Positions 9,005 through 16,949 of a stretch of 64,000 nucleotides of DNA are shown here, one piece after another. The notes below the pieces were generated by a model. That model did not search any database. It worked only from the letters and a program-made list of their open reading frames with translations, and was not told the DNA's origin. This DNA comes from an uncultured bacterium (GTDB lineage: Bacteria; Methylomirabilota; Methylomirabilia; Methylomirabilales; 2-02-FULL-66-22), in the NCBI GenBank assembly GCA_964576535.1, contig CAZNWB010000002.1:28470-92469 (forward strand). Reading direction: 5' to 3'. Each line of letters opens with the position of its first letter. Position 1 is the first letter of the stretch. The position numbers were made by a program, and so were the translations under genes.

Positions 9005-10852
9005 ATGACAGATATCCTGGGCATCTCCGCTTTCTATCACGATAGCGCGGCGTGCTTGGTGCAAGATGGAGAGATCGTCGCGGCGGCGCAGGAAGAAAGG
9101 TTCACCCGCAAGAAGCACTATGCCGGATTCCCGAGCCAGTCGATACGCTACTGTCTCCGCGAAGGGGGTGTCTCACTGGAAGACCTGCGCTACATCGCGT
9201 TTTATGACAAGCCTTTGGTGAAGTTCGAACGACTACTGGAGACATATCTTGCTTTTGCTCCGCGAGGGATCCGATCGTTCGTGACGGCCATGCCGATCTG
9301 GCTCAAGGAGAAGCTGTTCCTAAAGAGGCTGCTGCAAACAGAACTCTTGGCGCTGACCGATGGTTTGAAGAAGGCGGCACTACCCCCGTTACTATTCGGC
9401 GAGCATCACGAATCCCACGCCGCGTCCGCCTTCTATCCCTCTCCGTTCGATACGGCCGCGGTCCTGTGTATGGACGGCGTAGGTGAATGGGCCACGACGT
9501 CCGCGTGGCTCGGCCGAGGGAAGGAACTCACACCGCTCTGGGAGATACCATTTCCGCACTCGCTGGGTCTCCTGTACGCGGCGTTTACCTACTACGCAGG
9601 CTTCAAGATCAATTCCGGGGAGTACAAGGTGATGGGCCTGGCTCCCTACGGCCAACCGAAATACGTCAAGAACATCTACGATCATCTCATCGACCTGAAG
9701 CCGGACGGAACGTTTCGACTCAACATGGAGTACTTCGATTACTGCACGGGACTGACCATGACCAGCCGAAAGTTCGACGCACTGTTCGGCGGTCCGCCCC
9801 GAGAGGCCGAAACGCTGCTGACGCAGCGAGAGATGGATTTGGCGCGGTCTATCCAGGACGTCACCGAAGAGGTAATGTTGCGCCTATCCAGGACGATACA
9901 CCTGGAAACCGGTGCAGAGAATCTTTGCCTTGCGGGCGGTGTCGCTCTGAACTGCGTAGGGAACGGACGAATCCTAAGGGAAGGCCCGTACAAGGGCCTG
10001 TGGATTCAGCCGGCCGCCGGTGATGCCGGGGGAGCAGTCGGTGTCGCCTTGGCTGCGTGGCACCGGTTAGAGGGACGGCCTCGAGAGACGAACGGCCACG
10101 GCGATGCGATGCGGGGAAGTTCCCTAGGACCGTCCTTCTCCAATGAAGAGATCGAGCGATTTTTGAACAAACAGGGGGCTCCTTACGTCCGGCTCGATGA
10201 CAGTGCGCTGTTTGATCGGGTCGCCGAGGAGCTCGCATCTGGAAAGATCGTCGGCTGGTTCCAGGGCCGAATGGAGTTCGGGCCCCGAGCGCTCGGAGGA
10301 CGCAGCATTCTCGGGGACGCGCGGAATCCCACCATGCAATCGGTGATGAATCTCAAGATCAAGTACCGGGAATCATTCCGACCGTTCGCGCCCTCGGTGC
10401 TGCGGGAGCGAGTCGCCGATTACTTCGAGATGAACACCGACAGCCCCTACATGCTGCTGGTCGCCCCCGTACTCGAGAAGCGTCGCACGGAGATGACCTC
10501 GGAGCAGGAGGCCTTATGGGGAATCGACCTCTTGAACGTGCCGCGCTCGGATATCCCTGCGGTGACCCATATCGATTACTCGGCCCGCATCCAGACGGTC
10601 CACGAGACCACGCATCGGCGATACTACGCGCTCTTGAAGGCGTTCGAAGCGAAGACCGGGTGCGGCGTCATCGTGAACACGTCGTTCAATGTCCGCGGGG
10701 AGCCGATCGTCTGCACTCCGGCCGATGCCTACCGCTGCTTCATGCGTACCGAGATCGATCTGCTCGTACTCGAGAACTGCGTGCTCGAGAAGGCGAAGCA
10801 GAAGCCTCTGGTCAACGACACAGACTGGAGAAAAGAATTCGAGTTGGACTGA
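9005..10852 (+). CDS. Carbamoyltransferase, NodU/CmcH family
   Basis: 'ILGISAFYHDSAACLVQDGEIVAAAQEERFTRKKH' (N-terminal ASKHA-like domain) and 'VNTSFNVRGEPIVCTPADAYRCF' (C-terminal YrdC-like domain). ATG at 9005 is preferred over the upstream ORF start at 8969. Confidence 0.9.
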   Translation: MTDILGISAFYHDSAACLVQDGEIVAAAQEERFTRKKHYAGFPSQSIRYCLREGGVSLEDLRYIAFYDKPLVKFERLLETYLAFAPRGIRSFVTAMPIWLKEKLFLKRLLQTELLALTDGLKKAALPPLLFGEHHESHAASAFYPSPFDTAAVLCMDGVGEWATTSAWLGRGKELTPLWEIPFPHSLGLLYAAFTYYAGFKINSGEYKVMGLAPYGQPKYVKNIYDHLIDLKPDGTFRLNMEYFDYCTGLTMTSRKFDALFGGPPREAETLLTQREMDLARSIQDVTEEVMLRLSRTIHLETGAENLCLAGGVALNCVGNGRILREGPYKGLWIQPAAGDAGGAVGVALAAWHRLEGRPRETNGHGDAMRGSSLGPSFSNEEIERFLNKQGAPYVRLDDSALFDRVAEELASGKIVGWFQGRMEFGPRALGGRSILGDARNPTMQSVMNLKIKYRESFRPFAPSVLRERVADYFEMNTDSPYMLLVAPVLEKRRTEMTSEQEALWGIDLLNVPRSDIPAVTHIDYSARIQTVHETTHRRYYALLKAFEAKTGCGVIVNTSFNVRGEPIVCTPADAYRCFMRTEIDLLVLENCVLEKAKQKPLVNDTDWRKEFELD

Positions 10853-10867
10853 ACGAAGGAGAGGTCA

Positions 10868-15500: not shown

Positions 15501-15792
15501 GCTCCACTGGCCCCTCGAGAACCAGCGCCCGAACGTCATGGACTATCTGGAGCAGAAGCGGATCGACCTTGTGATCAACATCCCGAAGAGCTCTCACGAG
15601 GACGAGTTGACCAACGACTATCTGATCCGGCGCCGGGCCGTGGACTTCGGAGTCCCCCTCATCACCGACCTTCACCTCGCCCAGAGATTCGTCGAGGCGC
15701 TTGCCCGGAAGACCGTGGACGATTTGCTCGTCAAGAGCTGGGCCGAGTATGGGATGGCGGCAACGACCGCCTCCGGTGGAAGAAGCGCATGA
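12553..15792 (+). CDS. carB: Carbamoyl-phosphate synthase large subunit
   Basis: 1079 aa. Duplicated ATP-grasp halves ('[25 protein letters not shown]' / '[22 protein letters not shown]'), an oligomerisation domain and a C-terminal MGS-like domain. It overlaps carA by 11 nt. Confidence 0.95.
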   Translation: [1079 protein letters not shown]

Positions 15793-16949
15793 GGATTGCG
15801 TGTATCGTTGGGGCGCGTCCGAACTTCATGAAAGCCGCTCCGCTTATCCGCGAGATGCGGGCCTATCCCGAGCTCTCCCCGATCCTGATTCACACAGGTC
15901 AACACTACGATTTCGCCATGGCCGGGCAGTTCTTTCACGATCTCGGCCTGCCGACGCCGGACGTCTCACTCGAGGTGGGCTCGGGTTCGCACGCGCACCA
16001 GACGGCCGAGGTGATGAAGCGCCTTGAGCCCGTACTCCAGGCGCTGCGACCCGAGATGGTGGTCGTGGTCGGGGACGTGAATTCGACGATGGCCGCGGCG
16101 CTCACCGCCGTCAAGATGCACATCCCAGTGGCCCATGTTGAGGCGGGGCTCCGCAGCTTTGATCGGACAATGCCCGAGGAGATCAACCGGCTCGTCACCG
16201 ATGCCATTTCTGATTATCTGTTCGCCACCGAGGAGAGCGGACGCGAAAACCTGCTCCGGGAAGGCATCGATGCGAAGAAGATCCATCTGGTGGGTAACGT
16301 GATGATTGATTCGCTCGAGCAGTGCCGCCCTCTTTGGCAGCGGTCCACGGTTCATCAGCGCCTCGGGGTCAGTCCGGGAGAGTACGGCGTCGTTACGCTC
16401 CACCGTCCCTCCAACGTCGACGACAGCGCGACGCTGGAGGGACTGATGGCCGGGCTAGCGCAGGTCGGAACCCTGGTACCGCTGATCTTTCCGGTCCATC
16501 CGCGGACGCGAATGCGCCTGGAGAGCATGAACGGCAACGTGGCAGAGCTTCGAGCTGTGGCGGACGGGGTGGCCAGCGAGGGGATCCGTTTGACGGAGCC
16601 ACTGGGCTACCTGGACTTTCTGGCGCTGGTGGCCGGAGCCCGAATCGTCCTGACGGATTCCGGAGGACTCCAGGAAGAGACGACCGCCCTCGGTGTCCCA
16701 TGCCTGACGCTCCGAGAGCAGACGGAGCGGCCGATCACGGTCACATGCGGAACGAACCGCGTGGTGGGCACGGTGCCGCAGCGGATCATCGAGGAGGCGA
16801 GCCAGGTCCTGGAAGGACCACCGCGCACGGCGTCACGCCCGTTCTTGTGGGATGGCAAGGCCTCGCAGCGCATCGTCGCGATTCTACGCGAGGAATGCGG
16901 CGGCCGAGGACCCGCATACGCAGAGCGTCACCGATGTGCGTCCGGATGA
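15789..16949 (+). CDS. wecB: UDP-N-acetylglucosamine 2-epimerase (non-hydrolysing)
   Basis: 'MRIACIVGARPNFMKAAPL', 'HTGQHYD', 'VVVVGDVNSTMAAALTA' and 'HVEAGLRSFDRTMPEEINR'. The ATG overlaps the carB stop (ATGA). The ORF-track start at 15285 is an artefactual extension inside carB. Confidence 0.9.
   Translation: MRIACIVGARPNFMKAAPLIREMRAYPELSPILIHTGQHYDFAMAGQFFHDLGLPTPDVSLEVGSGSHAHQTAEVMKRLEPVLQALRPEMVVVVGDVNSTMAAALTAVKMHIPVAHVEAGLRSFDRTMPEEINRLVTDAISDYLFATEESGRENLLREGIDAKKIHLVGNVMIDSLEQCRPLWQRSTVHQRLGVSPGEYGVVTLHRPSNVDDSATLEGLMAGLAQVGTLVPLIFPVHPRTRMRLESMNGNVAELRAVADGVASEGIRLTEPLGYLDFLALVAGARIVLTDSGGLQEETTALGVPCLTLREQTERPITVTCGTNRVVGTVPQRIIEEASQVLEGPPRTASRPFLWDGKASQRIVAILREECGGRGPAYAERHRCASG

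Follow-up and report, generated by a model that had tools for sequence, protein, structure and literature searches.

Bacillus subtilis has an arginine-specific carbamoyl-phosphate synthase (CPSase), CarAB, together with a pyrimidine-specific one, PyrAA/PyrAB. Extra copies of primary-metabolism genes also occur in biosynthetic gene clusters, where they provide precursor supply. Among the enzymes that transfer carbamoyl groups, TobZ uses its donor, carbamoyl phosphate, via carbamoyl-AMP, and, to our knowledge, the NodU and TobZ/CmcH/NovN-type systems draw this donor from the housekeeping CPSase. According to reviews, bacteria usually have one CPSase common to arginine and pyrimidine synthesis, and fungi have two CPS II forms (PMC6022934). 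Here a gene block is described that encodes an O-carbamoyltransferase (CT), the small proteins SxtJ and DUF5989, and the CPSase subunits CarA and CarB. It lies in a stretch of 64,000 nucleotides (the window) on contig C2 of a metagenome-assembled genome (MAG; G000) from an uncultured sediment bacterium of the Methylomirabilota. The block CT-SxtJ-DUF5989-carA-carB is probably a laterally acquired carbamoylation cassette, in which carAB, a second copy, would give CT a private donor supply.

The arrangement resembles the pathway-specific pairs in that two complete glutamine-dependent CPSases occur in one organism, each encoded with its pathway; as in those pairs, one is in an operon, here pyrR-pyrB-pyrC, and the other is in a separate operon. 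Unlike in the arginine/pyrimidine pairs, the second enzyme is tied to an O-carbamoyltransferase in a polysaccharide locus and not to arginine genes. It differs from the known pairs also in that it is a xenologue (44% identical to the native enzyme) and not a lineage-wide paralogue, being present in 5 of 170 genomes of the phylum. As with the precursor-supply copies, a seemingly acquired primary-metabolic enzyme is encoded next to the tailoring enzyme by which its product would be used. The open-access papers searched contained no description of a CPSase devoted to a glycan locus or to another type of carbamoylation locus, and such an enzyme has apparently been undescribed so far.

CT shares the two-domain Carbam_trans_N/C architecture with NodU, which carries out the 6-O-carbamoylation of Nod factors, and with TobZ/CmcH/NovN. 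The match to Carbam_trans_N (PF02543) scores 374 bits over profile positions 2-346 of 346, and that to Carbam_trans_C (PF16861) scores 249 bits over positions 1-170 of 170. The NodU equivalog model (NF041651) gives 130.7 bits and does not reach its cut-off of 1000; CT is thus best classified as a member of the NodU/CmcH family and not as NodU itself. The two small genes that follow CT match PF19588 (SxtJ; 72.8 bits, cut-off 24.4) and PF19451 (DUF5989; 95 bits, cut-off 27). The latter match identifies the unannotated 50-aa open reading frame (ORF) at 11288, as had been proposed from the letters of the sequence.

The original prediction had likened this triad to sxtI, sxtJ and sxtK and had held the roles of the two small proteins to be open. 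Both points agree with the description of the cyanobacterial saxitoxin clusters (PMC2679770), in which the same three Pfam families stand in the same order and in which SxtJ and SxtK are given as of unknown function, working 'in conjunction with' SxtI. The present locus differs from the saxitoxin clusters in its polysaccharide context and in the attached carAB, which is absent from the sxt genes tabulated for two clusters (PMC2679770). In the Pfam annotation of the large window ORFs to 49.8 kb, none of the other sxt genes (sxtA, polyketide-synthase-like; sxtG, amidinotransferase) is found, and only glycan-synthesis and acyl-tailoring genes are present.

Organization of the block and its synthase

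The cassette and the wecB gene after it form six co-directional genes, arranged head to tail:

9005-10852, + strand: NodU/CmcH-family O-carbamoyltransferase (CT), 615 aa; Pfam Carbam_trans_N and Carbam_trans_C
10868-11266, + strand: SxtJ-family small membrane protein, 132 aa; PF19588
11288-11440, + strand: DUF5989 (SxtK-like) peptide, 50 aa, a single hydrophobic helix; PF19451
11463-12563, + strand: accessory carA, glutaminase subunit of carbamoyl-phosphate synthase, 366 aa; TIGR01368
12553-15792, + strand: accessory carB, synthetase subunit, 1079 aa; TIGR01369
15789-16949, + strand: wecB, UDP-GlcNAc 2-epimerase, 386 aa; TIGR00236 (349 bits, cut-off 210)

The spacers between CT, SxtJ, DUF5989 and carA are 15, 21 and 22 nt. 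The carA gene has a GTG start at 11463, 22 nt past the DUF5989 stop, with GGTGAGGA just ahead of it. The carB ATG at 12553 lies 11 nt within carA, the TAG of which ends at 12563, and the wecB ATG (15789-15791) overlaps the carB TGA (15790-15792) as ATGA. The gene order and all the junctions of the original prediction (the 22-nt gap, the 11-nt overlap and ATGA) are therefore borne out on the + strand. The CT ORF opens at 8969. Because its homologues align only from residue 13-16 and a GAGGAG site precedes the ATG at 9005, the latter is preferred as the start, in agreement with the earlier choice.

As for arginine or pyrimidine regulatory sites ahead of carA, for which a search upstream of 11463 had been proposed, the 22-nt gap is too short to hold such control regions. 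Between positions 7000 and 18000, a scan for the sigma-70 consensus only, and hence a weak one, found no promoter-like site (shuffled sequences averaged 2.2), and no terminator-like site was found on the + strand (shuffled sequences averaged 6.3). Rfam gave no match at gathering thresholds, the PyrR-binding element included, on either the window or the contig with the native pyr operon (see below). CT through carB, which are packed in the manner of an operon, are probably co-transcribed as one transcript, and the overlapping and tightly spaced codons may be read as translational coupling.

The 64-kb window as a whole is a single co-directional polysaccharide locus, and the carbamoylation block sits deep within this very large locus. 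The rest of the window holds glycosyltransferases, SGNH and deacetylase enzymes, AsnB-like amidotransferases, a Wzy-like polymerase and acyl-tailoring sets. Within the stretch 5406-6512, which has no full-length gene, an SGNH-like ORF (5655-6101) is partial with respect to the Pfam profile.

Both subunits of the accessory CPSase match their family models well above the cut-offs (carA, TIGR01368, 457 bits against 307; carB, TIGR01369, 1496 bits against 1027), and carB contains two CPSase_L_D1, two CPSase_L_D2, one CPSase_L_D3 and one MGS domain. The phosphorylation-site residues of Escherichia coli CarB, R129, R169, E215, H243, Q285, E299, N301 and R303, and R715, E761, Q829, E841, N843 and R848, are identical at both ATP sites between the E. 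coli protein (NC_000913.3), the window protein and eight clade members. The CarA glutaminase triad Cys269-His353-Glu355 is kept with respect to E. coli CarA, and the motifs GICLGH and HPEA are conserved. CarAB should thus be a complete glutamine-dependent CPSase and looks functional; with the catalytic residues of both subunits intact, it would be expected to produce carbamoyl phosphate from glutamine, bicarbonate and ATP.

Among the allosteric residues of E. coli CarB, K954, T974, T977, N1015, E783, D791 and T1042 are kept. The clade-wide changes at the ornithine and UMP/IMP sites are E892A, Y1040L, K993W, H995L, T1016I and T1017P. These differences may be lineage traits of another CPSase type rather than a sign of altered control. 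The window CarB scores 1223 bits to human CPS1 and 858 bits to E. coli CarB (PDB 1BXR), and for the native CarB of the relatives the preference is reversed (1411 bits to PDB 1BXR, 858 bits to human CPS1). The accessory and native carA of the same population are 36% identical by BLASTP and 46% identical in a MAFFT alignment.

Two carB types and the native pyrimidine operon

All 170 Methylomirabilota genomes that are at least 85% complete were surveyed for carB. An E. coli-like carB alone is present in 146 of them, 41-50% identical to that of the window (44-47% for full-length matches), and carB was not detected in 19. The window type is found in the remaining five (G000, G100, G120, G078 and G121), of which G120, G078 and G121 also have the native type. 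One same-class member is labelled Candidatus Methylomirabilia. Both types are held as well by G437, an 8.3-Mb MAG labelled Deltaproteobacteria that was reached separately. Within the genus, the E. coli-like carB is present in all 13 of the other genomes searched that are at least 85% complete; a further genome, G001, gave no match. Identity between the window carB and the carB of genomes from the same genus and the same order is only 44-46%.

The carBs of the window clade are at least 64% identical. The top 120 proteins from a broader search were at least 70% identical, and in a metagenome scan the identity drops sharply from at least 70% (5 loci) to 58-63% (75 loci). In a quick maximum-likelihood tree, 16 carBs from glycan loci lie on one side of a branch with an SH-aLRT value of 91. 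Their sister is the 58-63% group, and both are set apart from the E. coli-like native genes by a branch of great length. The window carAB is a foreign-type xenologue of the native enzyme and was probably acquired laterally. A donor lineage was sought and none was identified: carB fragments from an Acidobacteriota MAG are 56-61% identical, and the metagenome carBs at 58-63% lie in non-glycan contexts. No window-type carB was found at E <= 1e-299 in 251 Nitrospirota genomes, a set without a positive control. One clade member (P0118) bears the submitter label 'Nitrospirae bacterium', which therefore probably does not indicate that Nitrospirota commonly carry the clade.

Reading the accessory-type carB of G121 (L167, G121:C10:128800-133100; 64% identical) takes at least four frames, and the gene is either a decaying pseudogene or a product of indel errors of a long-read assembly.

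The MAG itself (3.72 Mb in 204 contigs, 96.5% complete, contamination 2.6%) has one carA and one carB. Taken at face value, this would make the window carAB the only, housekeeping copy, so that arginine and pyrimidine synthesis would hang on an exopolysaccharide (EPS) operon, one of the two options left by the original prediction; G100, which is 97% complete, likewise shows only this carB type. The neighbourhood of the native genes in relatives, however, leads to another carAB. In two relatives, a TPR gene and a spermine-synthase-like gene precede native carAB by a few kb, and both match MAG contig C179 at 68-71% identity. C179 comprises 4215 nt and breaks off precisely with the stop codon of the spermine-synthase-like gene. 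By exact-sequence look-up, the TPR protein of C179 is encoded letter for letter on a Logan contig of 13,479 nt; this contig matches C179 at 99.1% identity and the end of MAG contig C32 at 100%. Beyond C179, the Logan contig carries in order genes for a CxxC protein, a pyrR-like protein, a DNA methyltransferase, pyrB, pyrC, a 436-aa carA, an MNT/HEPN pair and the start of carB, and it ends with the first 19 codons of this E. coli-like carB. The whole gene set from pyrR to HEPN is absent from the MAG. A public run that has 91% of the sampled words of window positions 8969-16949 also has a 13,479-nt record on C179, at the same coordinates, and the record differs from C179 by three single-nucleotide polymorphisms and one replaced 83-nt intergenic stretch.

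Since this same-population contig runs from C179 into the native pyr operon, the window carAB is a second copy, which the organism has in addition to the CPSase of its own pyrimidine operon, and the single carAB of the MAG is an assembly or binning gap. The search for another carAB pair proposed by the original prediction thus yielded none in the MAG, but a native carA and the start of a native carB on the contig from the same population. With the occurrence of both types in four other genomes and of the E. coli-like type throughout the other same-genus genomes (G001 apart), it is most improbable that the window copy is the housekeeping one. The option that is favoured, by the native operon copy together with the distinct glycan-locus clade, is the other one, a second and EPS-dedicated carAB.

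Some further features of these contigs were seen. The Logan contig (L180/L184) joins C32 to C179; the DNA methyltransferase between pyrR and pyrB is a 784-aa N6/N4 enzyme, and the MNT/HEPN pair between native carA and carB is toxin-antitoxin-like. On C179 (L177), the 83-nt intergenic stretch at 1162-1246 is swapped for 96 other letters between strains in the same samples. Many contigs break or branch at C179 249-287, which suggests a short repeat.

Mis-binning of contig C2, which would assign carAB to another organism in the sample, has to be considered in view of the base composition. The GC content of C2 is 60.8%, against 65.5% for the MAG, and the GC at third codon positions is 0.82-0.84 for the accessory carAB, 0.88-0.91 for the native genes and 0.68-0.77 for other genes of the locus; the contamination estimate of 2.6% also leaves some room. 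A lower GC content, however, is usual in polysaccharide loci, the best DNA matches of the upstream 20 kb of C2 (73-75%) are in the same-genus genome G012, and the same carB clade is a second copy in other same-class genomes. A foreign origin of the contig is therefore considered very unlikely, and even if it were so, the cassette and the clade-wide glycan context would stand.

Gene context of the carB clade and of the transferase triad

All of the 16 clade contexts that were read lie among polysaccharide genes, and in approximately nine of the 16 CT stands beside carAB, in three gene orders. The order CT-SxtJ-DUF5989-carA-carB is seen in P0002 (carB 89% identical), P0004 (80%), P0016 (78%), G100 (78%), L195 and L197; L196 is a near-copy of P0016. 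P0118 has the nested order wecB-SxtJ-carA-carB-CT-DUF5989. In L198 a CT that is only 40% identical directly precedes carA, with no small genes between them. The upstream side is out of view in G078, where the contig ends inside carB, and in L199, which starts inside carB. As controls, the 75 next-nearest carB loci (58-63% identical) contain no CT, SxtJ or DUF5989. The case for a shared function rests most strongly on the recurrence of one gene set in three different orders.

In the related blocks the gap from DUF5989 to carA is 11-18 nt, and the gene that follows carB is SGNH or DegT and not wecB. The adjacency of carAB and wecB, the conservation of which among relatives was to be checked by synteny, is thus not a conserved part of the block: what recurs is CT/SxtJ/DUF5989-carAB, followed by SGNH, DegT or wecB. 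The combination that the original prediction had named as speaking against it, namely a genome with only this carAB and a carAB-wecB adjacency in relatives without the triad, was found in neither part, because another carAB exists and the adjacency is not conserved.

Downstream of carB in the window, a low-molecular-weight phosphotyrosine phosphatase ORF (16852-17562) overlaps the end of wecB by approximately 100 nt when read from 16852. Its start is probably later, as the Pfam domain begins only at residue 80. In the related blocks of P0002 and P0004, this phosphatase follows carB at a distance of 1-6 kb.

The triad itself is much more widely distributed than the attached synthase. The best 80 matches to CT in species genomes are 72-81% identical and mostly from Nitrospira. 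The order CT-SxtJ-DUF5989 is found in approximately 53 of these 80 loci, and most of the others have the small genes at another place in the locus or lie on contigs too short for a judgement. Only one of the 80 loci, that of G100, has carAB attached; the synthase is thus a rare addition to an otherwise common triad. The unusual conservation of CT across such diversely labelled MAGs (72-81%) suggests strong constraint, frequent transfer, or both. No SxtJ-family gene was found in 18 same-genus genomes.

The closest CTs come from MAGs labelled Nitrospira, Methylomirabilota, Acidobacteriota, Verrucomicrobiia, Binatia, Entotheonella, Hydrogenophilales and others. Several Nitrospira loci have SxtJ and DUF5989 at 8-10 kb from CT, in some cases with a wecB (63-65% identical) in between, and others have DUF5989 upstream of CT. 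G000 also has a second CT locus, without carAB, on contig C60 (L178:128-10086). It consists of a short SxtJ-family ORF (128-295) and a 594-aa CT (370-2154), followed by AsnB, an epimerase, two GT4 genes, a dehydratase and a UDP-sugar dehydrogenase.

SxtJ has hydrophobic stretches and a conserved C-terminal tail in which Y116, R117, R123 and H127 are invariant. DUF5989 forms one hydrophobic helix with an invariant C-terminus, and its mean column identity is 83% (27 homologues). In a three-chain prediction of CT, SxtJ and DUF5989, with SxtJ as the scored partner, the score is 0.78, and the best control scored 0.00; a mark of 0.78 is attained by 58 of 80 solved complexes and by 2 of 110 mismatched pairs. 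The prediction used alignments made for this analysis, of limited diversity; three runs share at least 95% of the contacts, and the predicted local distance difference test (pLDDT) value of the partner is at least 79. In the predicted complex, the SxtJ tail (residues 103-132) docks on the N-domain of CT and DUF5989 packs against the hydrophobic part of SxtJ. The model supports, but does not show, a tethering of CT to the membrane by SxtJ and DUF5989.

Proposed function and significance

The cassette lies inside a Wzx/Wzy-type polysaccharide locus. Under the proposed mechanism, its genes, made with CT from one transcript, would provide carbamoyl phosphate where and when the polysaccharide is built. 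CT would neither take its donor from the feedback-controlled arginine/pyrimidine pool nor be held back by it. The soluble CT would be held at the inner membrane face by the conserved C-terminal tail of SxtJ and the one-helix DUF5989, and the tethered enzyme would be placed beside lipid-linked sugar units for their O-carbamoylation. That carbamoyl phosphate from CarAB feeds CT is inferred, as is the sugar substrate, and O-carbamoylation of this polysaccharide is likewise put forward from the gene content. There is no room for an arginine or pyrimidine control region before carA, whereas the native copy lies behind a pyrR-like gene, and a private, locus-controlled supply is the simplest reading.

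Several observations weigh against this reading. It is a contig from the same population, and not the MAG itself, that shows the native operon, and G100 shows only the accessory carB type. A private supply is not required for the reaction, since 79 of the 80 closest CT triads have no adjacent carAB. Finally, approximately six of the 16 clade contexts (P0036, P0109, P0039, P0074/G437, G120 and G121) have no CT within 8-10 kb; because of these, the synthase may serve something besides this CT. Even so, Wzy, flippase, SGNH, glycosyltransferase, Bac_transf or DegT genes stand beside it in these contexts; in G120 a CT is 25 kb away on the same contig, and in G437 two CTs are on other contigs.

The contexts without a nearby CT would fit a different use, in which the accessory carAB raises the pyrimidine (UTP) supply for UDP-sugars and does not feed CT. 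Also in keeping with this use, wecB and UDP-sugar dehydrogenases are often neighbours, and in Pseudomonas fluorescens SBW25 carB and the pyrimidine pool are reported to be connected with capsule production (PMC4357382). However, pyrB, pyrC or other pyrimidine genes are beside the accessory carAB in no context that was read, and by established biochemistry UDP is recycled after glycosyl transfer, with no net drain on pyrimidines. Moreover, the position of CT beside carAB in three independent orders is hard to explain without a shared function. A role in UTP supply is accordingly rated as unlikely, and the supply of donor to CT is retained as the probable function.

A bolder form of the proposal may also be put forward, albeit tentatively and as something that we rather doubt: the cassette would be horizontally mobile, CarAB would be part of a membrane metabolon with the tethered CT, to which the labile carbamoyl phosphate would be channelled in isolation from arginine/pyrimidine control, and SxtJ/SxtK would be the membrane anchors of the transferase family, saxitoxin synthesis included.

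The known exceptions to the single CPSase split the enzyme between the arginine and pyrimidine pathways. Here there is an apparent third use, the decoration of a surface polysaccharide, and a separate CPSase clade travels with the transferase that would consume its product. For the metabolic reconstruction of MAGs the case is a caution, in that the bin contains no carAB other than the accessory pair and the true operon for pyrimidine synthesis was lost to an assembly gap. The cassette would allow carbamoylated polysaccharides to be recognized from the genomes of uncultured bacteria of soil and sediment. The widespread CT/SxtJ/DUF5989 triad, the small members of which have been without a function since the description of the saxitoxin cluster, would gain a concrete, testable role.

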